A program made the position numbers and the translations under genes. Under the pieces are notes generated by a model. That model ran no database searches and was not told the DNA's origin. It was given only the letters and a program-made list of their open reading frames with translations. Shown here in pieces: positions 744-35,939 of a DNA stretch of 64,000 nt. Position 1 is the first letter of the stretch. Every line of letters begins with the position of its first letter. The stretch comes from Nitrosopumilaceae archaeon. Its GTDB lineage: Archaea > Thermoproteota > Nitrososphaeria > Nitrososphaerales > Nitrosopumilaceae. The stretch covers positions 256,001 to 320,000 of the forward strand of contig OZ242376.1 of NCBI GenBank assembly GCA_965209085.1. The letters are read 5' to 3'.

Positions 744-906
744 TATTACCTGTTGTATAATGATATATTTATAATTTTTTGATTGAGGTTCTGTGAAGTT
801 ATCGGTGCATAGGCGTGAATATGGATATTCTTTGAATTGATTGTAAATATGCAAATAGGATGAATTATATAATAGACCTCATGCATAATTAACTAAAAAA
901 TCAATT

Positions 907-2106
907 TTGGCAAATCGAAAGATCTATGATCTAGTATCATGTGAGCATAGCATGTGCAAATCAGACAAACGCATGATCTCTAAACTGGAAAAGACGATCT
1001 TAAAGATGGAAAAGACGATCCTAAAGATGGAAAAGAATAGCTCCAGGCAGGAATCAGAAATTCAACACTACAAAAAGATGGCACAGAGTAGCAATGATGA
1101 CAAAAGACAACATGTCGATAAATATTTGAACAAGGGAATTGGGAATGATGTTCATCTATATGAAATGACAGGAATGAACCGTGAAGAATTTGAATGGATT
1201 CTAGAACGGTTCAAAAAAACCGTAGAAAATTCATCAGAGATTCCCCGCTTTTCAGAATATGTGGACGATCCTGGAAACACCTGTATCCTTACCGTAAAGC
1301 AAGTTTTGTTTATCGTATTGTGCCGCAAACGCAATAATCTCAAACAGGGAGCACTTGCGTTCATTGCAGACGTTGATCAGAGCACCATTAGCAGATATCT
1401 GACATTTTCTGATGAACTATTGATGGATATTCTTCCAACGGCTAAGAATATTGGTGCTGCAATACGGACAATACGTACAAGCGAGTTGTTTAAAAAATTC
1501 GTACCCGGCAGAGGCGGCGGCGAGCTATATCTTGATGCCACGTTTGTACAGGTTCAAAGACCGCAGGAGAATCAAGAAACAGTATACTATTCTGGAAAGC
1601 GCAAAAGGCACGTCTACAGCATACAGATAACCTCCAACAAAGATGGAGTGGTAAATGACATTGGCGGTCCAGAAGAGGGCTCAGTACATGACATGGAGGT
1701 ACTGCGGCGTAATCCGCCAAATTTTGGCAAATGGACCGATGGCATGAAAAACTCTGATACAAAAAAAGAGCGCCAAATTACACTCTACACCGACAAGGGA
1801 TACTTGTCCGTGGAAAAAGACTATCCTGGAATTATCTCAAAGCAGCCGTACAAAAAACCAAAGGGTAGGGGATTGACAGAGACAGAACGCGAATATAGCA
1901 AGAGGATCAGTCGTAAGCGCATAAAAGTAGAGCATGCCATAAACCGGCTCAAATGGTTTCGCAGAATGAGTGCCGTATATGATGACACAATGGATGCGTT
2001 TTATACAGAAATCCAAGTGGTTACAGGACTGACCAATCTGCACATCATGTTAAAGGATCGCAAGTATATCGAACCGTTGGAAAAAATTTGCCCTCAAATC
2101 AAGTAG
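907..2106 (+). CDS. IS5-family DDE transposase
   Basis: HTH (VDQSTISRY), YLDATF..QRP, YSGK.KRH, HDM, YTDKGY and RIKVEHAI motifs. Confidence 0.9.
   Translation: MANRKIYDLVSCEHSMCKSDKRMISKLEKTILKMEKTILKMEKNSSRQESEIQHYKKMAQSSNDDKRQHVDKYLNKGIGNDVHLYEMTGMNREEFEWILERFKKTVENSSEIPRFSEYVDDPGNTCILTVKQVLFIVLCRKRNNLKQGALAFIADVDQSTISRYLTFSDELLMDILPTAKNIGAAIRTIRTSELFKKFVPGRGGGELYLDATFVQVQRPQENQETVYYSGKRKRHVYSIQITSNKDGVVNDIGGPEEGSVHDMEVLRRNPPNFGKWTDGMKNSDTKKERQITLYTDKGYLSVEKDYPGIISKQPYKKPKGRGLTETEREYSKRISRKRIKVEHAINRLKWFRRMSAVYDDTMDAFYTEIQVVTGLTNLHIMLKDRKYIEPLEKICPQIK
986..1036 (+). repeat. 21-bp in-frame tandem repeat, about 2.4 copies (heptad MEKTILK)
   Basis: TGGAAAAGACGATCTTAAAGA / TGGAAAAGACGATCCTAAAGA / TGGAAAAGA. 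Confidence 0.9.
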
Positions 2107-2276
2107 CACATCTTTGTGCATACAGTCACGCATAATATCCTGCTTTTTGTCATGCATATGATATTTGGATTTATTTTGTTGTCTGCTTGAAGGTTTTAGG
2201 CCATATGTACTTTGATCATGACAGTGTCATAGTAGGAACCGTATGTCTTTGCAGTTGATTATGCATGAACTCTAAT

Positions 2277-3631
2277 AGACCTTATGCATAATTAACCAAA
2301 AAATCAATTTTGACAAATCGAAAGATCTATGATCTAGTATCACATTCGTACAGCATGTGTGCCCCAGACAAGCGTATAATCGCCCAGCAAACAGAGATGA
2401 TCTCCAAGCTTGAAGCAGAAATTCAACACTACAAAAAAACGATACATGATAATGAGGTCGAAAAGCAACAATCTGCCTACGAATATTTGAACCACATAAT
2501 TGATGATGACAATTATTTGTACGGGACGACTGGAATGAACCGTGAAGAGTTTGAATGGATTCAGGAACGGTTTGAAAAAGTTATCGAATATTCGCCCAAG
2601 GTCCCCCGCTTTTCAGATTATGTCGACGATCCTGGAAACACCTGTATTCTCACTGCATCTCAAATTTTGTTTGTCACACTGTGCCGCAAACGCAACAATC
2701 CTAAACAGGAATTGCTTGCGGCCATTGCAGGCGTTGATCAGAGCACCATCAGCAGATATCTGACCTTTTCTGATGAATTGTTGATGAATATTCTTCCAAC
2801 GGCTAAGAATATTGGTGCTGCAATACGGACAATACGTACAAGCGAGTTGTTTAAAAAATTCGTACCCGGCAGAGGCGGCGGCGAGCTGTATCTTGATGCC
2901 ACGTTTGTACAGGTTCAAAGACCGCAGGAAAACCAAGAGGTAGTATACTCTGGAAAGCGTAAGAGGCACGTCTACAACGTACAGATAACCTCAAACAAAG
3001 ACGGGCTGGTACTTGACATTGGCGGACCTGAAGATGGCTCAGTACATGACATGGAGGTACTGCGGCGTAATCCGCCAAATTTTGGCAAATGGACCGATGG
3101 CATGAAAAACTCTGATACAAAAAAAGAGCGCCAAATTATGCTATATACTGACAAGGGATATCTGTCCGTGGAAAAAGACTATCGGGGCATTATCTCAAAG
3201 CAGCCGTACAAAAAACCAAAGGGCAGAGGATTAACAGAGACAGAACGCGAATACAGCAAGAGAATCAGTCGTAAGCGCATAAAAGTAGAGCATGCCATAA
3301 ACTGGCTCAAATGGTTTCGCAGAATGAGTGCCGTATATGATGACACAATGGATGCGTTTTATACAGAAATCCAAGTGGTTACAGGACTGACCAATCTGCA
3401 CATCATGTTAAAGGATCGCAAGTATATCGAACCGTTGGAAAAAATTTGCCCTCAAATCAAGTAGCACATCTTTGTGCATACAGTCACGCATAATATCCTG
3501 CTTTTTGTCATGCATATGATATTTTGATTTATTTTGTTGTCTGCTTGAAGGTTTTAGGCCATGTGTACTTTGATCATGACAGCGTCATAGTCGGAACCGT
3601 ATGTCTCAGTGATTGATTATGCATAAGGCCT
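2277..3631 (+). mobile_element. IS5-like insertion sequence, copy 2, in tandem with copy 1
   Basis: TIRs AGACCTTATGCATAAT (2277-2292) and ATTATGCATAAGGCCT (3616-3631); AAT on both flanks. Confidence 0.85.
2310..3464 (+). CDS. IS5-family DDE transposase
   Basis: Same motifs as 907..2106; C-terminal two-thirds nearly identical. Confidence 0.9.
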   Translation: MTNRKIYDLVSHSYSMCAPDKRIIAQQTEMISKLEAEIQHYKKTIHDNEVEKQQSAYEYLNHIIDDDNYLYGTTGMNREEFEWIQERFEKVIEYSPKVPRFSDYVDDPGNTCILTASQILFVTLCRKRNNPKQELLAAIAGVDQSTISRYLTFSDELLMNILPTAKNIGAAIRTIRTSELFKKFVPGRGGGELYLDATFVQVQRPQENQEVVYSGKRKRHVYNVQITSNKDGLVLDIGGPEDGSVHDMEVLRRNPPNFGKWTDGMKNSDTKKERQIMLYTDKGYLSVEKDYRGIISKQPYKKPKGRGLTETEREYSKRISRKRIKVEHAINWLKWFRRMSAVYDDTMDAFYTEIQVVTGLTNLHIMLKDRKYIEPLEKICPQIK

Positions 3632-3645
3632 AATAAATGTAATAT

Positions 3646-3840
3646 GTGAATAATATGGGCATTATTGGTACCTATTCGGTAGTTGTGAAATGTGAAAATT
3701 GTGGTACGGGTAATAAAATTGTTATTTCTAAAGGTGTAACGATTGGGAGTAGCTTGAAGAATATCCGTGATGTATGTGGTAATTGTGGCTGTCCGTTAAA
3801 ACGTAGAGCAAATTATACCGCAGATCATAAATTCGTTTAA
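3646..3840 (+). CDS. Small zinc-ribbon protein
   Basis: Two CxxC pairs (CENC, CGNC) in 64 aa. Confidence 0.55.
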   Translation: MNNMGIIGTYSVVVKCENCGTGNKIVISKGVTIGSSLKNIRDVCGNCGCPLKRRANYTADHKFV

Positions 3841-4085
3841 ATTCTGAATGATGTTCATAAATGATTCATGTTTTTTACATCTATAACTTCGTCATATTAT
3901 GATATTATTGATGGTTTTTTTAAACGAATTAATGCTTTGGGGTATAACAATAAAGTGATCTTTTTTTCACACCAACCGATAAACTTTTAGATCGCTAAAA
4001 TACATTAGACTTCATGCATAATGGGTCAAATTCACAATTTTTACGAATAAAAATGACCGATTTGAACGATTATGCATAACCATAT

Positions 4086-5208
4086 GTGAAGAGAGCTTCT
4101 AAGACCACAGATGGTTGTAAGAATGTCAAACGATCCGTATCACCGAAACGTAAATCATCTAAAAAAGATCCAAATGCAAACAAACAGATTACCACATATT
4201 CTGGGAAGAATATGTTTGTTGGAATGGACGTTCACAAGAAATTTCTTCAAGTTGCAATGATGGATAAAAAAGCCAAAGTGATTTTTAATGAGAGGATTGA
4301 AAATGAAAACAAGTCCATCAGTCGATTCTTCAGATCAAGCGTACCTGAAAATGCAAAAATCGTAATGGAATCTTCATCCGTATGGTACGGTCTATATCGA
4401 TACATGACAGATAAAATGGGTTATAATGTCGTATTGTCAAATCCATGGGCGACAAAAATCATCGCCGCATCCAAGAAAAAGACCGACAAGAGGGATGCTG
4501 TAACACTTGCAGACCTATTACGGTGCGGATACATATCCCTCTGTCATGTCTCAAACAAGGACATAGTGGAACAACGGCAACTTGTACGATATCGCGACAG
4601 CCTTGTCAAGACAAGGACAACTCTAAAAAACAAAATACATGGAATTTTGTTACAGGGAGGGATAAAGATCTTTGGAGCAACATTTACGCTTACATACAAT
4701 AGAAAACTGCGTTCTCTAAAGGATTATCGTATAAACGGATATTTGGATTCTATTGGATTCGTTAATACAAAAATTGCAGACTCAAACATAAAAGTACACA
4801 ACGCATCCTGTTCAAACAAGGATGCAATGTTGCTCAAGACAATACCTGGCATAGGTGATTTTATTTCATTGATACTGGCAGCAGAGATTGATGGAGTTGA
4901 GAGATTTTCTGAACCAAAACAACTCAAATCATATGCAGGTCTTGCCCCATCGGTTCGCAATTCAGCAGATGTGGTCCATCACGGACATATAACAAAAAGA
5001 GGAAAGTCAGATGATGCGATGGGCACTGGTGGAAGCTGTTACCACACATGTCCGATTTGCATCAGAGAGTAACATTTCTGAATTTTACCGGCGTCTTGCA
5101 AAAAAGAGAGGATCATCCAAGGCCAAAGTTGCAGCAGCGGCCAAGATGCTGGATATCATATTTCGTATGCTAAAGGATAGGAGTGAATTTGAAATACATC
5201 ATAGTTAA
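4086..5208 (+). pseudogene. IS110 DEDD recombinase/transposase, frameshifted near 5003
   Basis: FVGMDVHK, VMESS, KKKTDKRDA, TIPGIG, SYAGLAPSVRNS and ITKRG motifs; the C-terminus (MRWALVEA...KAKVAAAAKML) continues in another frame (5011..5208). Confidence 0.9.
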
Positions 5209-5216
5209 AGCAACAA

Positions 5217-5330
5217 ACCGCGGGTTAGACTTTGGGGATGTTACCCCGGCTGCATAACTGCGGTAAGCTTTAACATGTAGATGAAGATGGTTGTGGGATT
5301 AAATCCCGAATGGATAGATGTCTTTTATCT
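5217..5330 (+). ncRNA. Putative bridge RNA/seekRNA (target-binding and donor-binding loops)
   Basis: Two stem-enclosed internal loops, each with a central hairpin. Guides TAGACTTT (5226-5233) and TGCATA (5251-5256) match the IS5/MITE TIR; ATGGTT (5287-5292) and ATGGATA (5310-5316) match the element's circle junction. Transcript ends unknown. Confidence 0.75.
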
Positions 5331-5525
5331 TTTGGTTGGAACCAGACACATAGCGAAAGCCATACCGCATGACACAAAAAAGCAAGAAACCTTTAAAAAG
5401 TATTCACATGGATAACCTCTATTGCCATTATTGTCTAATAATCACTAAAATTGACAAATTATGCAAGGTTGTACACCATACCACGCATGAGAATGTTTAT
5501 GGACACTATATGATGGATAATAACC

Positions 5526-7664
5526 GTGAAGGTTGCAAAACTACATTTAGAAAAAGAGGCTCTGGAATTTCTTGACAAACAAGGATACAAGGATCTCTTC
5601 CCGCCCCAAAAAACTGCCATAGATGCCGGATTATTAAAAGAAAAAAGCATACTGGTTTCAGCTCCCACTGCGGGAGGCAAAACACTCATTGCCATGATGG
5701 CAATACTCTCGTTTCTCTCAAAAGGCAAGGGCAAGGCCGTATATCTTAGCCCTCTAAAGGCGCTGGCAGCGGAAAAATATTCTGAATTTAAAAAACTCGA
5801 ACAAATTAAAATCGGCGGAAGAAAGCCCCGTGTGGCAGTATCTGTTGGAAATTTGGGCAATTCGAAAAACAATCCTGCAAACAGCGACGTTTTGATTTTA
5901 ACAAACGAAAGAATGGACTATATGATAAGGCGCGGTTCGGACTGGGTTGATGACATAGGTCTGATCATAGCTGATGAGGTGCATCTTGTCGGCGATGATG
6001 ACAGGGGACCGGCACTGGAGATGATTTTAACGCGAATGAAAAGAAAAGATCCGACACCGCAGATAATCGGCCTTAGCGCAACGGTGACAAACTCTGAAGA
6101 GATTGCAGACTGGCTGGGTGCTGATCTTGCAGAAAGCGATTGGCGTCCGGTTCCGCTTACAGAAGGCGTGTGCGACGGCAGAACGGTTGAAATGAACGAT
6201 GGTAAAATATACGAGCCTAAATTTACGGTCAGGGGAATTCCCGTGGATCTTGGTATTGAATGCGTGGTAGAGGGCGGACAGTCGCTCCTGTTTGCAGAAA
6301 CGCGCGTGCGTGCAGCATCACTGGCAACCAAGGCTGCTGATGCGATATCAGAGCTGCTCACAAGCAATGAGCGCAAATCGCTTGCAGCAATATCCAAAAA
6401 AATTACCGGCTCTAGTGAGCGCACCGAACTGGTCCAAAAACTGGCAGATCTGGTGAAAAAAGGCGTGGCGTTTCATCACGCAGGATTGGATCAGAAATGT
6501 CGCGAGGCAGTGGAGGATGGATACCGCAAAGGCGCCATAAAGCTGCTCTCATCAACTCCAACGCTTGCAGCAGGCGTAAATCTTCCCGCAAGGCGCGTTG
6601 TAATATCCAGCGTGATGCGTTACAACGGCAAAGTGGGCGCCAACGTTCCAATACGCGTCCTTGAATACAAACAACTGTGCGGCAGGGCCGGCCGGCCGCA
6701 ATACGACGATCACGGCGAGGCAATAATCGTGACAAGCAGGGCAGCTGAGGAGATTGCCGAACATTACATTGACGGCGAGGCTGAACCCATTGAATCGGTG
6801 ATAACCGAGGAGAATGCATTGCACAACCACGTTTTGGGACTTGTATCAACGGAGCCGGGAATACGCGGCGAGGATGTCGTGAAATTTTTTATGGACACGC
6901 TTGGCGGAATGCAGTACCAGAAAGGTGAGACAAAAAACGGCGTCTCTGAGGCGCTTGAATACCTGGAGGAAAAAGAGATGCTGGTCGGAAAGAAAAAACG
7001 GTACGCTGCAACCGAATTTGGAAAAAGAACCTCCTCACTGTACATTGATCCGCAGACTGCATGGAGGATGCGCGAGGCGATAACGAATGCGTCAAAAAAA
7101 GGATCGCATGCGCTCGGATTCTTACATGTAATAACACAGTGCCGGGAATTTTACCCGCGCATGCAGCTGCGGCAAAAAGATTACGAGCTAGCCGATGAGC
7201 TGCTTGAAAAGAAACGCTCAGAGCTGTTAGATCCCCTGGATGCATCCGAGTGCAGCAGAAGTTTGATTGCACTTGACATGTGGATATCCGAATATTCTGA
7301 ATCAAACATTGCAAGCGCCCTAAAGGCAGAATCCGGTGATGTACACCGCATGAATGAAACTGCGCGGTGGCTTGCATTCTGCATGAGGGAGCTCTCACGG
7401 CATCTTCAACGACCGGATCTTGCAGCAGAGATGGAGTCATTGGAGATGCGCATCAGGTACGGAGTAAAGACACAGCTGCTTGATTTGGTGCGCGTGAGGG
7501 GAATTGGACGCGTCCGGGCGAGAATCTTATACAAGAGGGGAATAAAGACAGTTGAGGATCTTGAAAAAATACCTCTTGCAAAACTTGCAGCAACCGACAA
7601 GATTGGCTCAAAGCTTGCAGCAAGTATAAAATCACAGACGGGCAGATTTGGACCGCGGCGCTAG
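5526..7664 (+). CDS. hel308: Hel308/Hjm (Ski2-like) SF2 DNA helicase
   Basis: APTAGGKT, DEVH, SAT, TPTLAAGVNLPA and QLCGRAGRP motifs; C-terminal HhH (GIGRVRAR). Confidence 0.93.
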   Translation: MKVAKLHLEKEALEFLDKQGYKDLFPPQKTAIDAGLLKEKSILVSAPTAGGKTLIAMMAILSFLSKGKGKAVYLSPLKALAAEKYSEFKKLEQIKIGGRKPRVAVSVGNLGNSKNNPANSDVLILTNERMDYMIRRGSDWVDDIGLIIADEVHLVGDDDRGPALEMILTRMKRKDPTPQIIGLSATVTNSEEIADWLGADLAESDWRPVPLTEGVCDGRTVEMNDGKIYEPKFTVRGIPVDLGIECVVEGGQSLLFAETRVRAASLATKAADAISELLTSNERKSLAAISKKITGSSERTELVQKLADLVKKGVAFHHAGLDQKCREAVEDGYRKGAIKLLSSTPTLAAGVNLPARRVVISSVMRYNGKVGANVPIRVLEYKQLCGRAGRPQYDDHGEAIIVTSRAAEEIAEHYIDGEAEPIESVITEENALHNHVLGLVSTEPGIRGEDVVKFFMDTLGGMQYQKGETKNGVSEALEYLEEKEMLVGKKKRYAATEFGKRTSSLYIDPQTAWRMREAITNASKKGSHALGFLHVITQCREFYPRMQLRQKDYELADELLEKKRSELLDPLDASECSRSLIALDMWISEYSESNIASALKAESGDVHRMNETARWLAFCMRELSRHLQRPDLAAEMESLEMRIRYGVKTQLLDLVRVRGIGRVRARILYKRGIKTVEDLEKIPLAKLAATDKIGSKLAASIKSQTGRFGPRR

Positions 7665-13890: not shown

Positions 13891-14245
13891 AAAGTACCCC
13901 TACCTGATAATCCAATAACATCGTGATTTCTCCGCATCTGATTGAGTTGTCTTTGCAGAATAATCTTTATGATCTCTAGTAATATTTTATCCATGAGGTC
14001 ATATCATGTCTAAAATTTATGCAATAAATGAAAATGCAGATATAAAATAGTACAAGGTGCAGATCTTGTATTTTTTTCTAAATATCCTAATAGAGTTTAT
14101 ACATAATCAATCGAAGAGACATACGATTCTGATTATGACGGTCATGATCAAAACGCACATGGCCTAAAACCTTCAAGTAGACAAATTAAAATGTCCCATA
14201 CATGACAAAAAGCAGAATATTATGCGTGACTTACATAAATATGTG

Positions 14246-29488: not shown

Positions 29489-32400
29489 TTACGGATTTAA
29501 TTCCTCATCAAAACCTCTAAATCTATCAATAGCTCTCTCAGTATCTTGTATATATTCTGACAACCATTTTTGGACATTTATGTTTGATTCTTTTTTATAT
29601 AATTCTTCAAGTTTCTGTTTTTTATTTTCATGATGCGTTGCGCCAGATCCTGTCCAAGATTCATTATTAAAATTTATAATAATATATCGTCCAACATTTT
29701 CAATTTTTGAATATTTTGCAAGTATTTTACGTGCAATATTGAAATCATGAGGTATTAAATTTGCGATTATCGGTGCTCTTTTGTTTGGAGATTCATCAAT
29801 CCAAGACATTACATCGTCGATAGGAAATTTATCAAATATAGATTTTTTGTCATGTCCATCTCCCCGCATCCAAAGTGTCATGGTCACCGTGTGTTTTGTT
29901 CTTGGATCTAGATATGATGAGACAAGTTCCCATACTTTAGAGGGATGTTTTGATATTATGTCATTTAATATTTCCAAACATTGTGTATTACCAATTGCAG
30001 AAAATATTGAATTTCCTGAAAAATTATCAAAAATATGTTTTGCCAGCGGCATGAGCATACTAGGATATACTTTGATAAATTTATCTGCAATATTCTTCCA
30101 ATAATACTCCAGCATTACATCATGATAAGTATCAGATATGTGTTCGCTTGTTAATAAATTAAATATTAAATCATCGGATATCAGATTCCAATTAAAATTA
30201 TAATCTAATTGCTTATCAAGTAAATTAATTGCTAGAATAACAGAATCTCTTGTATTGGATTTAATGATCTTTTCAAGCCATTTCACAAATATAGAATCAG
30301 ATAATTTACCAAATCTACCATATTGAAAATATTCAAAAATAGTATAATCCATACTTGGTTTATCTAGTATCAATAATAACATTTTGGCAGATTTATCATT
30401 AATTCCACTTCTCCATATTAATTCTGGTATTAGTTTATACAATACAGAATCAGAAAAAATTAAATCAAGAGTTTGATCATACATTTTAATATTGTTTTCA
30501 TATAATACTCGCATATACCCACCAAGAAAATGGCATGTGTTTAGTTTTGGATCATATTGCACGTTGCGATATGATTGTAGTATGTTTGGTAATAATTGAA
30601 ATTTTTTATCATGGTTACCTAATTCATATCCAAAATATTGTCCATTTTTTGCATTTTTACCAATTAACCATGGCAATTCATTTTTAATTAATTCATAATT
30701 TTTGGAGTCATCGATCAGTTTACAAAATCGTTTCTTGAATAACGAATCATGATTTTCATCAATTTTGTCTACAAGTAAATCCATTCCAACATATCTATGC
30801 AATTTCGAAACATAGTCAACACCAATAATATCATTATTTAACAAATTCTTTAATTTTAATTTCATATCTTTTGAAATATGATCGTTATATTTCAATTCTT
30901 TAGATATGGAATCAACTAGCGATTCTTTGTTAGCATAATTATTGGCATTTAATGATCTTAGGATTGAAAAAAATATTAGCACTGTTTTGGAATTTACAAG
31001 CATGTTTCTTGCACTGGTAAATACAACTTTAACAATTTCACTTCTTACATCATTGTTACATTTTGGTAATAATGATCTCATAAATATCAAAATTGCAATC
31101 CTGTAATCGTCTATTTCATTACCATTTGCAGGGATCCATACTTTCACATTATCATCCAATTCTCCGTATTCGTGAACATTTACTATGCCTAGAGGTTCAT
31201 GCAATCCAGCTCCACACGCATTGATCATAATTATCCGTCTTGTAGTAGAAGAGTTGGCAAATTCTTCCTGTAATATTTTAAAACGTTCGATTGGAGCTAA
31301 TTCTGTGGGTGCGGTATTATGACCGTACACAATACTGAACAAGCCCATAAATGATCCAGTTGCGTTATTCGCATACGTTGAATTTTCGGTTTCTGCCAAA
31401 GTTAGTAATAATTTCATTGCTTGAGAAAAATATTCTTTTTTCATAACAATTTTATTTAACGCAAAAACTATTTCAGTTCTTCCAGTTTTATAATTTAATA
31501 ATTTTTCATGAGACATTTTAGAAAAAAAACGTTCTAAAAAAGATAATGAATCATTCGGATGTATCACTGCTATTACTAAAAAAAAATTTTGTATTATTGT
31601 ATTTTTATCTGTATTCATATATTTTTCAAATAATCCACCCTCCGCAAGTAATTTTTTTACTCTTGATTGTGCCACTAGATTCTTTTTTGCATATCTAAAC
31701 ATATCAAAATACCACGTTATAAAAATATGAGTTGTACTATCAATTTCATTATTTTCATTTTTTAATATGAGATTATCTAGATCAATGGCCACTGCATTTC
31801 CAAATTTTTCCCACAATTTAACCCATAATTTAACATGTAATATTTTTGGAGTGATGTATAATATTATTTTACCTTGTAAAACTTTCATATGCATCAACGT
31901 ATCTACATTTTCGTTAAAGTCTCCCAGAGAGATGTTATCGTATGTTTTTGCTAATTTTGCAATATATTTAATATGTTGACTATATACATCTCTATATCCA
32001 AATCGTTTGAATAAGCTAATCCACATTAAAACTTTCCAACGAATTTTTGCTTCGGGAGATTTTACATCATTTTTATTTGCAACGTATCTCTCCCAAAATG
32101 GAACTGAATTAGGATTTTTTAGTATGTCTTGGGGATATTTTTCTAAATTAAAACCTATTATGTGTGCAGCTCTAGGCGAATCTCCACATTCTCTGGCCCA
32201 TTTAGAAATATGTTCTTTTGGAATATGATATTTTTCTAATATAGATTCTATTTGTTTATTTGATAATAGTGGTGGAGAAAATTTATTATTCGAATAATCT
32301 TCATTAAATTCATTATGAATTGTTATAAGTTTAATTCTAGAACCATGTTGACGAAATTGATTACTAATCCGTTCATATGCCATATCATCACATTCATCGA

Positions 32401-33226
32401 CAACTAATATCATGTGTTTATTTGTATCATGTTTAATCGAACGACTAAAATCGTTATAATCTAGATCGTCAGGTGTTTCAAAATATAATACTAATGGGGC
32501 TATATCATCAGATCTTGTTGTTTCTAAAATTATCCGTGTTTTTCCCGCACCGGGTTCTTCAATAACACGAATATTGGTAGATTGGCTCCAATTTCTTAGC
32601 TGATCTTGGATATTATTCATATAAACAATTTGTTTTTCATCCTTAATGAATTCTTGACGGAAGTCATTATTTTTGGACCATGTTTCATGTGTTATGAAAT
32701 TTGATTTTATATTTTTTATATCTACGATTAATGATGGAAAATGATTTAAAAAGCTGACGATTGTGTTTTTTTTCCAAATTTCTATATTTGGTTTTGTGTC
32801 GGTTATGGACACATTTTGTAACGCATCATAAAATTTCTTTAATAATTCATTATTATGAGTTTCTGGTTTATCATATCCGGTTAGTATAAGGATCAATGTG
32901 TTATTGTTGTCAAAACACATTTTAATTTTTGGCTTTAATTTTCCTTTGCTGTTAAATAAAATTTCTTTAATAATTAAATTTTTGCCAGATTTGACTTGAT
33001 AATACGTTGTACCTTTTTTTATAAGGCCATATTTACTATTTCTATCCGCATTAACAACCTCTGCATCAATTCCTCCATCTGAATCATTAATTTCACTTGG
33101 TATGTTTATATTGGTTGAAGGGATTTCAGATATGCTAGCATCTGTCCAAAGCATCTTATGTAATAATTCTACAGATCTTGTTGGATCTAGTTGTGTTAAT
33201 TCGTCTACTAATATCTCAAACATCAT
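29489..33226 (-). CDS. Large PD-(D/E)XK nuclease-STAND-like NTPase with helical-repeat C-terminus (candidate defence protein)
   Basis: N-terminal SDGGIDA...YYQVKSG; Walker A EEPGAGKTR; Walker B ILVVDE; long helical C-terminus; very AT-rich. Confidence 0.75.
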   Translation of the reverse strand: MMFEILVDELTQLDPTRSVELLHKMLWTDASISEIPSTNINIPSEINDSDGGIDAEVVNADRNSKYGLIKKGTTYYQVKSGKNLIIKEILFNSKGKLKPKIKMCFDNNNTLILILTGYDKPETHNNELLKKFYDALQNVSITDTKPNIEIWKKNTIVSFLNHFPSLIVDIKNIKSNFITHETWSKNNDFRQEFIKDEKQIVYMNNIQDQLRNWSQSTNIRVIEEPGAGKTRIILETTRSDDIAPLVLYFETPDDLDYNDFSRSIKHDTNKHMILVVDECDDMAYERISNQFRQHGSRIKLITIHNEFNEDYSNNKFSPPLLSNKQIESILEKYHIPKEHISKWARECGDSPRAAHIIGFNLEKYPQDILKNPNSVPFWERYVANKNDVKSPEAKIRWKVLMWISLFKRFGYRDVYSQHIKYIAKLAKTYDNISLGDFNENVDTLMHMKVLQGKIILYITPKILHVKLWVKLWEKFGNAVAIDLDNLILKNENNEIDSTTHIFITWYFDMFRYAKKNLVAQSRVKKLLAEGGLFEKYMNTDKNTIIQNFFLVIAVIHPNDSLSFLERFFSKMSHEKLLNYKTGRTEIVFALNKIVMKKEYFSQAMKLLLTLAETENSTYANNATGSFMGLFSIVYGHNTAPTELAPIERFKILQEEFANSSTTRRIIMINACGAGLHEPLGIVNVHEYGELDDNVKVWIPANGNEIDDYRIAILIFMRSLLPKCNNDVRSEIVKVVFTSARNMLVNSKTVLIFFSILRSLNANNYANKESLVDSISKELKYNDHISKDMKLKLKNLLNNDIIGVDYVSKLHRYVGMDLLVDKIDENHDSLFKKRFCKLIDDSKNYELIKNELPWLIGKNAKNGQYFGYELGNHDKKFQLLPNILQSYRNVQYDPKLNTCHFLGGYMRVLYENNIKMYDQTLDLIFSDSVLYKLIPELIWRSGINDKSAKMLLLILDKPSMDYTIFEYFQYGRFGKLSDSIFVKWLEKIIKSNTRDSVILAINLLDKQLDYNFNWNLISDDLIFNLLTSEHISDTYHDVMLEYYWKNIADKFIKVYPSMLMPLAKHIFDNFSGNSIFSAIGNTQCLEILNDIISKHPSKVWELVSSYLDPRTKHTVTMTLWMRGDGHDKKSIFDKFPIDDVMSWIDESPNKRAPIIANLIPHDFNIARKILAKYSKIENVGRYIIINFNNESWTGSGATHHENKKQKLEELYKKESNINVQKWLSEYIQDTERAIDRFRGFDEELNP

Positions 33227-33429
33227 ATTAAATTAATTTTGCTATTATATATTAGACACTATACTGACACGTAAAAGTAACTGCAATTTATGACTCTGCA
33301 CAATGTTACCGCAAGATATTTTGATCACATCGTGTATGAATCAATCATGAACAAAGAACATCAAGAACTGTACAATGCAAGCAGGCATGTCAAAGATGGT
33401 AGAGATCGAGAAAATACATTTTGTAAGCA

Positions 33430-34466
33430 TGGATGATCCTCTCTTTTTTGCAAGACATCGGTAAAATTCAGAAATGTTACTCTCTGATGTAAATCAGACA
33501 TGAGTGATAACCGATTCCACCAGTGCCCACCACACCATCTGGCTTTCCTCTTTTTGTTATATGTCCGTGATGGACCACATCTGCTGAACTGCGAACCTAT
33601 GGGGCAAGACTCACATATGATTTGAATTGTTTTAGTTCAGAAAACCTCTCAACTCCATCAATCTCTGCTGTCAGTATCAATGAAATAAAATCACCTATGC
33701 CAGGTATTGTCTTGAGCAACATTGCATCCTTGTTTGAACAGGATGCGTTGTGTATTTATGTTTGAATCCGCAATTTTTGTATTAATAATCCAATAGAATC
33801 CAAATATCCATTTATACGATAATCCTTGAGAACGCAGTTTTTTATTGTGTGCAAGCGTAAATGTTGCTCCAAAGATCTCTATCCCTCCCTGTAACAAAAT
33901 TCCATGCATTTTGTTTTTTTTAGAATTGTTCTTGTCTTGACAAGACTGTAGCGATATCGTACAAGTTGTCGTTGTTCCATTATGTCCTTGTTTGAGACAT
34001 GACAGAGGGATATGTATCCACAACGTAATAGGTCTGCAAGTGTTATAGCATCTCTTTTGTCAGTTTTTTTCTTGGATGCGGCGATGATTTTTGTAGCCCA
34101 TGGATTTGACAATACGACATCATAACCCATTTTATCTGTTATGTATCGATATAATCCGTACCATATGGATGAAGATTCCATGACGATTTTTGCATTTTCA
34201 GGTACGCTTGATCTGAAGAATCATCAGATAGACTTGTTTTCATTTTCAATCCTCTCATTAAAAACCACTTTGGCTTTTTTATCCATCATTGCAAATTGAA
34301 GAAATTTCTTGTGGACGTCCATTCCAACAAACATATCCTTCCTAGAATATCGGGTAATCTGTTTGTTTACATTTGGATCTTTTTTAGATGATTTACGTCT
34401 CGGCAATACGGATCGTTTGACATTCTGACAACCATCTGTGGTCTTAGAAGCTCTCTTCACATATGG
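33430..34466 (-). pseudogene. Degraded, 3'-truncated second copy of the IS1111-type element
   Basis: Colinear with 4080-5118, with several frameshifts and stops; left end CCATATGTGAA intact. Confidence 0.9.
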
Positions 34467-34539
34467 TTATGCATAATGAGTCAAATTCCCAATTTTTACG
34501 AATAAAAATGACAGATTTGAACGATTATGCATACGGTCT
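34467..34539. mobile_element. MITE copy interrupted in its left TIR by the IS110 element
   Basis: TTATGCATAAT-GAGTCAAATTCCCAATTTTTACGAATAAAAAT...ATTATGCATACGGTCT followed by AAT. Confidence 0.85.
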
Positions 34540-34577
34540 AATAAAGATAAAAATATGACAATTAATTAAAAATATCT

Positions 34578-35450
34578 ATGAATAATAATATAGCCATAAT
34601 ATGCGATTGTGATGAAACACTAGCTGATGATACAACTAGTACTCTTATAAAAGAAAATGATATTGATGTAAAGGACTTTTGGAATGGCATAAATAAAAAT
34701 TTTGTAGAAAAAGGCTGGGATCCTCCTCAAGCATATATGAGTGAAATTTTAAGATATATGATAAATAAACAAATTAAACAAAATACACCTGAGAAGATGA
34801 AATGTTTTGGAGAAACGATCAAACCATATCGTGGGGTTGATAATTTTATGAAAGAATTAAAAGATATGATATCGGATAATTCTAGATGTATAAAAGCAGG
34901 CATTAATTTGAAAGGATATATTATTTCATCTGGTATTGAAGATTTGATAAGAGGTTGTAGTTTTGCTAATAAAGAACAATTTGAAGACATATTTGCATGT
35001 AATTATAATTGTGATGAAAATGGAATATATGATTCAATAAAAAATATAACGACATTTACAGAAAAAACAAAATTTCTTTATGCAATTAATAAAGGTATAA
35101 ACGGTAAAAGTTTAAGAAAATACCCATATTTAGTAAATGGCACAATTGAAAAAAAATCTAGAATACTCCCATTTGAAAATATGATCTATATTGGGGATGG
35201 ATCTGGAGACATACCCTGTTTTTCCGCTGTTCAATCTAATGGAGGTCATTGTATTGGAATATTTAATCCAGATAATATGAATGATGATCAAAATCAAATC
35301 ACCAGTACAAGAATTCGAAAAAAAGCATATGAATTATCATATGGAGGAAGAACAAATCATGGAAATTACTCTAATAATTTTTGTGAGAACAGTGATTTAC
35401 GATTAAATTTAGACATAATAATACACGAGATCACTGATCGTATATTATAA
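34578..35450 (+). CDS. HAD-superfamily hydrolase
   Basis: Motif I DCDETL, motif II ISSG, motif III EKTK, motif IV YIGDGSGDIPC. Confidence 0.85.
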   Translation: MNNNIAIICDCDETLADDTTSTLIKENDIDVKDFWNGINKNFVEKGWDPPQAYMSEILRYMINKQIKQNTPEKMKCFGETIKPYRGVDNFMKELKDMISDNSRCIKAGINLKGYIISSGIEDLIRGCSFANKEQFEDIFACNYNCDENGIYDSIKNITTFTEKTKFLYAINKGINGKSLRKYPYLVNGTIEKKSRILPFENMIYIGDGSGDIPCFSAVQSNGGHCIGIFNPDNMNDDQNQITSTRIRKKAYELSYGGRTNHGNYSNNFCENSDLRLNLDIIIHEITDRIL

Positions 35451-35691
35451 TATAAAATCGTGAAGTGGAATGGATGTCACATTTGCTAGATGGAGGGAAT
35501 TATTTCTCATAACAGGCAGAATCGCATTTTCTAACAAATCCACAGACAATTGGAATGTAGTATAGCCGCGAAGCGTCTCATTGCTCTGTATGGATTAGAT
35601 GAAATTCTCATACGCAGTACCTGTCATATCTTCTATTTTTATATCCATGCTGTATATGCGGTGTGGGCCTTTATTTGTCATCAAAATATAG

Positions 35692-35765
35692 CGGGTCTAG
35701 TGGGATTCGAACCCACGACAGCCGGATTAAAAGTCCGGTGCGCTACCTGGCTGCGCTATAGACCC
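35692..35765 (-). tRNA. tRNA-Lys(TTT)
   Basis: GGGTCTA...CCGGA-CTTTTAA-TCCGG...GTTCGAATC...TAGACCCG. Confidence 0.95.
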
Positions 35766-35861
35766 ATATTTGCACAAACCCTATATCGCATAATTTAGTC
35801 TTTATAGACGGCATAAAAATTCCGTAATGCTTTAATCGGACATACTGCCGATTGAAAATTA

Positions 35862-35939
35862 GCCCTTGTAGTATAGCCTGGTCTAGAATTCGGCCCTGTC
35901 ACGGCTGAGACGCGTGTTCAAATCCCGCCGAGGGCGCCA
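35862..35939 (+). tRNA. tRNA-Asp(GTC), CCA encoded
   Basis: GCCCTTG...CGGCC-CTGTCAC-GGCTG...GTTCAAATC...CGAGGGCG-CCA. Confidence 0.93.

Follow-up and report, generated by a model that had tools for sequence, protein, structure and literature searches.

Two IS-A insertions in a MITE inverted repeat

The window, a 64,000-nt stretch of the 1.69-Mb genome of a Nitrosopumilaceae archaeon, contains two copies of an insertion sequence (IS), here called IS-A, each lying against a copy of a MITE (miniature inverted-repeat transposable element). Window coordinates are positions in this stretch, and coordinates marked "genome" refer to the whole genome. That the host is archaeal is borne out by its SSU rRNA, for which the archaeal Rfam model gives the best match (1472 bits). 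IS-A is 1335 bp long in intact copies (AACCATATG...CACATGGAT) and encodes an IS110-family DEDD transposase. We conclude, with a probability of about 0.8, that IS-A targets one site, in one orientation, within the terminal inverted repeats (TIRs) of the MITE and of an autonomous element, IS-X, and that the site is most likely set by an RNA of the seekRNA/bridge RNA type.

The original prediction held that both window loci carry the same junction when read in the orientation of the element, and this was confirmed. The 22-mer ATTATGCATAACCATATGTGAA, which reads ATTATGCATAA/CCATATGTGAA across the junction, occurs without mismatch at 4069-4090 on the + strand and at 34456-34477 on the - strand, with zero occurrences expected by chance and no match in 100 dinucleotide shuffles. 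When the two loci are aligned in IS orientation, the IS agrees in 60 of 61 columns and the TIR agrees as well; the MITE interior does not agree in this orientation, and the outer flanks are unrelated. Read on the + strand, MITEs 1 and 2 are colinear and identical at 62 of 65 positions from ATGCAT to GCATA. As had been proposed, the MITE interiors thus lie in opposite orientation relative to the IS, which occupies the right end of MITE 1 (IS on +) and the left end of MITE 2 (IS on -). Because the outer flanks are unrelated, the IS copies are 93.6% identical and fall on separate tree branches, and the interior is flipped, the two window insertions are not copies of one composite, and the claim that no simple duplication had taken place is upheld.

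The exact positions needed some adjustment. Interruption of the right TIR at 4080 and of the left TIR at 34466 had been proposed; comparison with uninterrupted MITEs places the IS boundary two bases further out than first read (...ATTATGCAT/ACGGTCT..., ambiguous within ATA), and this boundary is backed by 14 uninterrupted targets in a sister species of that species' own IS variant. At the right end the interruption stands: with IS-A removed, MITE 1 measures 71 + 7 = 78 bp, the length of an uninterrupted MITE, with ATT on both sides. At the left end IS-A copy 2 is broken off at about 33433, beside a 177-bp fragment of another repeat (IS-Z), so that the 3' non-coding region, the right end and the 7-bp left-TIR tip are missing there; that this TIR was interrupted rests on the other left-end insertions in the genome. 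The right target duplication of MITE copy 2 is AAT (34540-34542). In IS-A copy 1, one extra base near 5003-5007 splits the transposase frame and makes the gene a pseudogene.

Host elements and genome-wide distribution

The MITE occurs at 44 loci in the genome and has a 78-bp body (AGACTTCATGCATAATGGGTCAAAT...ATTTGAACGATTATGCATACGGTCT). It is short and non-coding, has TIRs, a target-site duplication and many copies, and shares its ends with an autonomous element. The target duplication is a 3-bp ANT, equal on both sides in 13 of 14 stringently defined uninterrupted full copies. The outer ~16 bp of the TIR are common to IS-X, the 1.4-kb autonomous element, which is present in the genome in at least 10 copies, six of which share 99-100% identity. 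We consider IS-X to be IS5-like, because its 399-amino-acid (aa) open reading frame (ORF) carries the Pfam domains DDE_Tnp_4 (8e-20) and HTH_Tnp_4, and it is probably the parent and mobiliser of the MITE. The possibility that the MITE sequence is a part of the IS was rejected, given ~60 uninterrupted MITE ends without the IS and the presence of the IS in IS-X ends as well. In annotation, MITE ends and short tips beside the IS should not be counted as IS.

A BLAST survey of the genome yielded 10 full or split copies of IS-A, eight 3' fragments and one 5' fragment. Left junctions number 12, counting a deleted derivative at genome 1681637, and 11 of these lie in the TIR family at the same base, always with the left end of the IS towards the interior of the host element. 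They comprise three MITE right ends, five MITE left ends and three IS-X ends (one 'Y' end and two 'X' ends, both 'X' cases having the same flank). The uniform orientation (11/11) corresponds to a binomial p = 0.001, though the copies are kin. All 17 right junctions are followed by the TIR-tip-like sequence A/G-NN-[G/C]TCTA-N-T. A context-based census counted 107 ends without an insertion, of which 34 are left and 26 right ends of MITEs and 20 are 'X' and 27 'Y' ends of IS-X, so that roughly a tenth of the targets is occupied. Removal of the IS restores a 78-bp MITE with matching 3-bp triplets in four of the five copies in which both junctions survive. This comparison of filled and empty TIRs supports the proposed sequence- and orientation-specific targeting; neither an inversion of the MITE interior after a single insertion nor random flanks around the remaining copies were found.

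Only two copies of IS-A are intact (genome 156316-157646 and 693560-694890), and their identity of 99.7% argues for recent activity. At >90% identity, IS-A was found in this genome only, among 41 searched; the sister species has 67%-identical relatives. The junction 19-mer had no exact match in the species-representative genome collection and four matches in metagenome contigs, none of which continues into the IS, and these are taken as chance matches. Counterparts of window 31500-35690 and 3640-4004 were found neither in the sister species (G001) nor in a second genome (G002). Five public runs, all available as contigs, contain parts of the stretch, and a look for RNA runs returned none. In the contigs of four of the five, none bridges the empty site at this locus, the repeat contigs being fragmented, and no end-to-end (circle) joint was seen; rare forms are invisible in contigs, so this result is silent on activity. 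One contig of public run X1 has a joint from window 4116 to 4938, the sole skip joint seen, and it equals the joint of an IS-A derivative of 516 bp with an internal deletion, which lies in the left end of a MITE at genome 1681563-1682191 (L025). What is left in this derivative are 37 bp from the left end, the predicted RNA region in full, and the right end. Since both ends and the RNA region are kept, it may be a non-autonomous mini-IS equipped with a guide of its own.

Elsewhere in the genome (558896-561651), a copy of IS-A lies within an IS-X end and is broken in turn by a 99%-identical IS-X (559667-561071), so the IS-A and IS-X families insert into each other. The two IS-X copies in the window adjoin head to tail and have an AAT triplet in common, and more IS-X-type ends were seen near 14103. 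The DNA to the right of the MITE 1 duplication (window 5424-5480, ...ATTATTGTCTAATAATCACTAAAATTGACAAATTATGCAAGG...) resembles a degenerate IS-X end on the other strand. The odd tip AACCTCT beside IS-A copy 1 may stem from an older nested insertion or from exchange between IS copies.

The positions of all features are collected below.

Table 1. Features of the IS-A, MITE and IS-X loci in window coordinates
Feature	Position	Strand	Remarks
IS-X copy 1	872..2276	+	TIR tips AGACCTCATGCATAAT... / ...ATTATGCATGAACTCT, common with the MITE
IS-X copy 2	2274..3634	+	85% identical to copy 1
Left 3-bp target duplication of MITE 1	4004..4006		ATT on both sides
MITE copy 1, inner 71 bp	4007..4077	+	left TIR, interior, right TIR up to ...ATTATGCAT
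IS-A copy 1, 1336 bp	4078..5413	+	AACCATATG...CACATGGAT; subterminal repeats CCATATGTGAA, TTCACATGG
DEDD transposase gene of copy 1	4212..5208	+	start ATG 4212 or GTG 4086; frame broken
Predicted target-binding module 1 (seekRNA/bridge RNA)	5218..5263	+	stem CCGCG/UGCGG, hairpin GGGG...CCCC
Module 1, 5' loop strand	5223-5233	+	GTTAGAC (5224-5230) complements TIR tip GTCTAA
Module 1, 3' loop strand	5249-5258	+	TGCATAA (5251-5257), same sense as inner TIR
Predicted donor-binding module 2	5279..5323	+	loops match the IS's own ends
Module 2 loop ATGGTT	5288-5293	+	complements IS left end AACCAT
Module 2 loop ATGGATA	5311-5317	+	same sense as IS right end
TATA-like box TTTAAAAA	5392..5399	+	~14 nt before right end; conserved in all IS variants
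7-bp tip of MITE 1 right TIR (AACCTCT) and right duplication ATT (5421-5423)	5414..5423	+	
IS-Z end fragment, 177 bp	33260..33432		marks cut point of IS-A copy 2
IS-A copy 2, remnant	33433..34468	-	IS positions 1-1040; several stops and frameshifts
MITE copy 2, 71 bp	34469..34542	+	inner left TIR (ATGCATAAT...) to intact right tip ...ACGGTCT (34539)

The repeat that marks the cut point of IS-A copy 2, IS-Z, is about 1.12-1.19 kb long, has at least six copies and contains a 330-codon ORF on the other strand relative to IS-B, a 65%-identical relative of IS-A in the same genome. Every IS-B copy has this IS-Z end downstream of it, ~72 bp beyond the flank and in the same relative orientation. This shared arrangement raises the possibility that IS-A copy 2 was produced by deletion or recombination between such IS-Z-bearing arrangements. 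For the stretch around copy 2 (window 29489-35450 and 35691-35939), which includes ORFs of 1245 aa and 290 aa, neither G001 nor G002 has a counterpart, and genes for tRNA-Lys and tRNA-Asp lie close to where it ends; on these grounds, it may be a strain-specific island.

Transposase and predicted guide RNA

The transposase encoded by an intact paralogue (P0001) contains PF01548 (7e-28; residues 45-190, the N-terminal RuvC-like DEDD domain) and, in its C-terminal part, PF02371 (1e-21), and matches the NCBIfam model NF033542, 'IS110 family RNA-guided transposase', over profile positions 1-342 of 343 with 218.6 bits (cut-off 140). Among proteins of solved structure, the ISCro4 and IS621 transposases come closest to it, though at low similarity (E = 2e-8 and 7e-6); the structures hit were 8wt6 and 9t56. 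In the alignment with ISCro4 the residues D, E and D..D match, and GLAPSVRNSA aligns with GLTPRRYESG: the serine of the SG motif is kept, and the next residue is A, not G. The protein measures 331 aa from M43, with the profile match starting at residue 44, or 373 aa from an upstream GTG, compared with 330-350 aa in IS1111 elements. The restriction to one target and one orientation that characterises the IS110 family is seen at 11 of 12 left junctions, and the 3' non-coding region typical of IS1111 elements is present, with 205 nt between the stop codon (5206-5208) and the IS end (5413). The subterminal repeats CCATATGTGAA and TTCACATGG are perfect over 7 bp (ATGTGAA/TTCACAT) or match at 9 of 11 positions with a 2-nt gap, against an IS1111 norm of 11-13 bp with perfect or near-perfect repeats. 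Beyond them extend ~2 bp on the left (AA) and ~2 bp on the right (AT), ambiguous within ATA. In IS1111 elements the corresponding extensions measure 7 (or 6) bp at the left end and 3 bp at the right end (Siddiquee et al. 2024, PMC11187229). Judged by its sequence, IS-A shows the features that define the IS110 family in the wide sense and the IS1111 organisation in part; the IS1111 label of the original prediction holds for the organisation and fails for the canonical 7/3-bp terminal extensions.

The 3' non-coding regions of 11 elements from three genomes were aligned: four of IS-A, two of IS-B, four of IS-C (including its variant) from the sister species, and one from another genus. The consensus fold consists of two modules, each made up of an outer stem, an internal loop and a hairpin, with 23 pairs in total. 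In this fold 96.8% of the cells are paired, versus 32-50% with the partners slid, and five pairs show compensatory change, the consensus structure having been derived from the same 11 sequences on which the pairs were counted. The stems of module 1 are conserved, and its loop strands differ between variants.

The loop strands of module 1 match the sequences on either side of the insertion. All 10 bases of the IS-A 5' loop strand GTTAGACTTT pair with AAGGTCTAAT, G-U pairs allowed. The 3' loop segment TGCATAA is identical to the seven bases left of the IS and therefore complements the bottom strand. In IS1111 seekRNAs, the top-strand complement lies 5' of the bottom-strand match (PMC11187229), and the order in IS-A is the same, GTTAGAC (5224-5230) lying upstream of TGCATAA (5251-5257). 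Five variants (A1, A2, B, C and C2) were compared: once reverse-complemented, the 5' loop agrees with the right flank of its own element over 6, 9, 10, 7 and 9 bases, respectively, and all non-cognate pairings reach at most 5 bases. Within IS-A, the loop GTTAGAG goes with a CTCTA tip, the type seen at IS-X 'Y' ends, in four of four copies, and the loop GTTAGAC goes with a GTCTA tip in six of nine. A tie between loop variant and tip type is only suggestive here (Fisher p = 0.06-0.07).

The predicted module 2 is consistent with a donor-binding function. Its loop co-varies with the right end of the IS, ATGGAT occurring where that end is CACATGGAT, and ATAGAT where it is CACATAGAT, as in the IS of the sister species. 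Close to the right end, a T-T-(T)-A-A-A-A-A box is kept in IS-B, IS-C and the element at L019 although the surrounding sequence varies. We infer that this archaeal TATA-like box (5392-5399) is an outward or circle-junction promoter; it would fire across the right end and, in a circle, into the transposase gene.

IS-B is present at genome 666534-667795, 730168-732543, 856512-857691 and 1172111-1173450 (L020-L022). Its ends are nearly the same as those of IS-A, its target loop reads CGCAGTATAT / GAGATTCTAA, and each of the four copies is followed by ATA(T)ACTGCGG, which is complementary to the IS-B loop. In the sister species, IS-C occupies one position in the middle of a different MITE (MITE-C, TIR GTATGAGGTCACG...) in six of six copies examined (L012-L016, L018), and its loop is matched to its own MITE site. 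MITE targeting appears to be a habit of this IS lineage. Two MITE-C copies of G001 (C1:595123-595149 and 595243-595269; L033, L034) read GTTCTAGATGCATTTAC and are four bases longer than 12 other uninterrupted MITE-C targets. The extra bases are the leftover expected from loss of the IS between the TA in TAACC and the one in CACATAG, and may be an excision footprint.

Proposed mechanism, alternatives and significance

The reading of IS-A as an RNA-guided element proceeds from what was observed: how many junctions there are, where they lie and how they are oriented, the family of the transposase, the complementarity and co-variation of loop and flank, and the conserved fold. The RNA would be made from the 3' non-coding region, bind the transposase and direct recombination via a circular intermediate. 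The target is ...TTATGCAT/A(N2)[G/C]TCTA, which lies about 7 bp inwards of the tip of the TIR, and a circular IS copy would recombine with TGCAT/A... under RNA guidance. In module 1, the 5' loop segment would pair with the TIR tip on the top strand and the 3' segment with the inner TIR on the bottom strand; the module 2 loop matches the IS's own ends. Every IS-X or MITE carries this asymmetric target twice, inverted, once at each end, so that either end can be hit, each in its own fixed orientation, and the two window copies represent one insertion of each kind. Insertion would disable the affected end of the host element.

Three other explanations were weighed. The best placed of them, which we nevertheless regard as improbable, is that the IS-X transposase moved MITEs already holding the IS, so that there were fewer independent IS-A insertions than junctions. 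In its favour, a transposed composite would likewise be flanked by matching ANT triplets, and little separates the three right-end composites from one another. Against it, the TIR is cut in two by the IS at 7 bp from the tip, and an end split in this way should be disabled; the tip is, besides, AACCTCT at window copy 1 and ACGGTCT at the other two right-end composites. At least two events, one per MITE end, would be needed in any case.

Slightly less probable still is recognition of the TIR by the transposase protein alone, with the 3' complementarity incidental or, for example, regulatory. Such recognition would account for the mismatched tips of some GTTAGAC-loop copies, for the differing register of the 5' loop in IS-A and in IS-B and IS-C, and for the lack of a recognised RNA family, a stable single-sequence fold and a circle joint in the contigs. 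It is difficult to reconcile with five variants that have near-identical ends and related transposases and yet use different targets, each matching its own loop over 6-10 bases versus at most 5 for the others, or with a fold that is conserved while the loop strands vary. The family model to which the transposase belongs above its cut-off is itself named RNA-guided, and a non-coding RNA was essential in published experiments on IS1111/IS110 members (PMC11187229). Finally, a single insertion followed by duplication of the MITE+IS composite and flipping of the interior by recombination between its own TIRs is very improbable and largely refuted: although the three right-end composites have near-identical MITEs (0-2 mismatches) and IS copies of 98.6-99.7% identity, all outer flanks differ, the window copies are far more divergent and sit on separate branches, the five left-end MITEs differ mutually at several interior positions, the IS is also found in IS-X ends without MITE interior, and each composite has its own matching 3-bp duplication.

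Several observations weigh against RNA-guided insertion of IS-A into the TIRs. Both window copies of IS-A are defective. One left junction (1/12; genome 683416) has no recognisable TIR, and the copy at genome 686399 (1/5) has unequal flanking triplets. The first tip base is A at 16 of 17 filled sites versus 60 of 107 empty ones (p = 8e-4), which does not fit; this base is possibly donor-derived and is then no proof of preference. The transposase motif GL-P----SA in place of ...SG, the short subterminal repeats and the 2 + 2 instead of 7 + 3 bp extensions do not fit the canonical description. The guide RNA, the circle and transposition are here predicted from sequence, which sets IS-A apart from ISEc11/ISXne4, ISPa11 and ISKpn4, whose seekRNAs are treated by Siddiquee et al. 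2024 (PMC11187229) and whose motif is S(T)G. An Rfam scan of window 3900-5600 (E <= 1) returned only two unrelated sub-threshold matches, and the single-sequence fold of the 3' region is uninformative, being no better than shuffles (z = -1.19); the consensus fold has the circularity mentioned above. Three of the nine GTTAGAC-loop copies, two of them with the same flank, have a mismatching tip, and window copy 1 is such an exception, combining a GTTAGAC loop with the CTCTA-type tip AACCTCT; the weak loop/tip association within IS-A belongs here as well. The IS-A 5' loop pairs with the 10 bases directly after ...GGAT, whereas the homologous loop of IS-B and IS-C also covers the last two IS bases, a register shift of 2 nt. 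Placing the IS-A loop in the IS-B/C register (last bases of the right end, crossover, 5-7 flank bases) was tried and does not fit.

The behaviour as such is already known, and IS-A is a new archaeal example of it. It is closest to IS4321/IS5075, which reportedly insert in Tn21's terminal inverted repeats. Like these, IS-A is an IS with a DEDD transposase, subterminal repeats and a 3' non-coding region that takes one position and orientation in the TIR of another transposon. Unlike them, it has an archaeal host, targets an IS5-like element and its 78-bp MITEs, has extensions of about 2 + 2 bp rather than 7 + 3, and comprises two co-resident loop variants matching two tips. No description of this archaeal element, or of MITE-TIR targeting by such an IS, turned up in full-text searches of open-access papers.

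The comparison extends to elements with characterised or predicted RNAs. With the IS1111 seekRNA elements (PMC11187229), IS-A shares a non-coding region downstream of the transposase gene with two short segments in the same order, the use of repeats as targets (REP and attC in their case) and, as in ISEc11/ISXne4, related elements re-programmed naturally by segment replacement. Unlike the seekRNAs described there, the predicted RNA of IS-A has a second, donor-matching module, and in this it resembles the bridge RNA of IS621. For IS621, Durrant et al. 2024 (PMC11208160) describe a homologous transposase and an RNA with two internal loops, one matching the target and one the IS ends; that RNA lies in the left end, whereas the predicted RNA of IS-A lies in the right end. 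The same authors predicted a right-end bridge RNA for 93% of IS1111-group elements (PMC11208160). ISPpu9 of Pseudomonas putida (PMC12288879) is also an IS110-family element confined to a genomic repeat family, with a small-RNA gene downstream of its transposase; its target is a REP palindrome, unlike the mobile-element TIR used by IS-A.

From sequence alone, the case provides a complete example, with its own internal controls, of an archaeal IS110/IS1111 element whose target choice is probably programmed by RNA: five variants in one genome and its sister species combine conserved ends and a conserved fold with loops that appear to be programmed differently, each in a matching repeat. It would also explain the build-up of IS-A in MITEs and IS ends, where an insertion would be harmless to the host and harmful to the rival element. 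The natural guide/target pairs, including a pair of variants one base apart, are testable in a bridge-recombinase assay.

More tentatively, and with the odds against it at present, IS-A may be a specialised parasite of the IS-X/MITE family whose guide RNA tracks that family in a guide-RNA-mediated arms race. The guide variants GTTAGAC and GTTAGAG, one loop base apart, would then fit the GTCTA and CTCTA tips of IS-X and the MITEs; each insertion would split a TIR and disarm that end, and IS-X would have struck back in the IS-A copy that it interrupts (559667-561071). If true, this would constitute a natural single-nucleotide re-programming series for an archaeal bridge recombinase.

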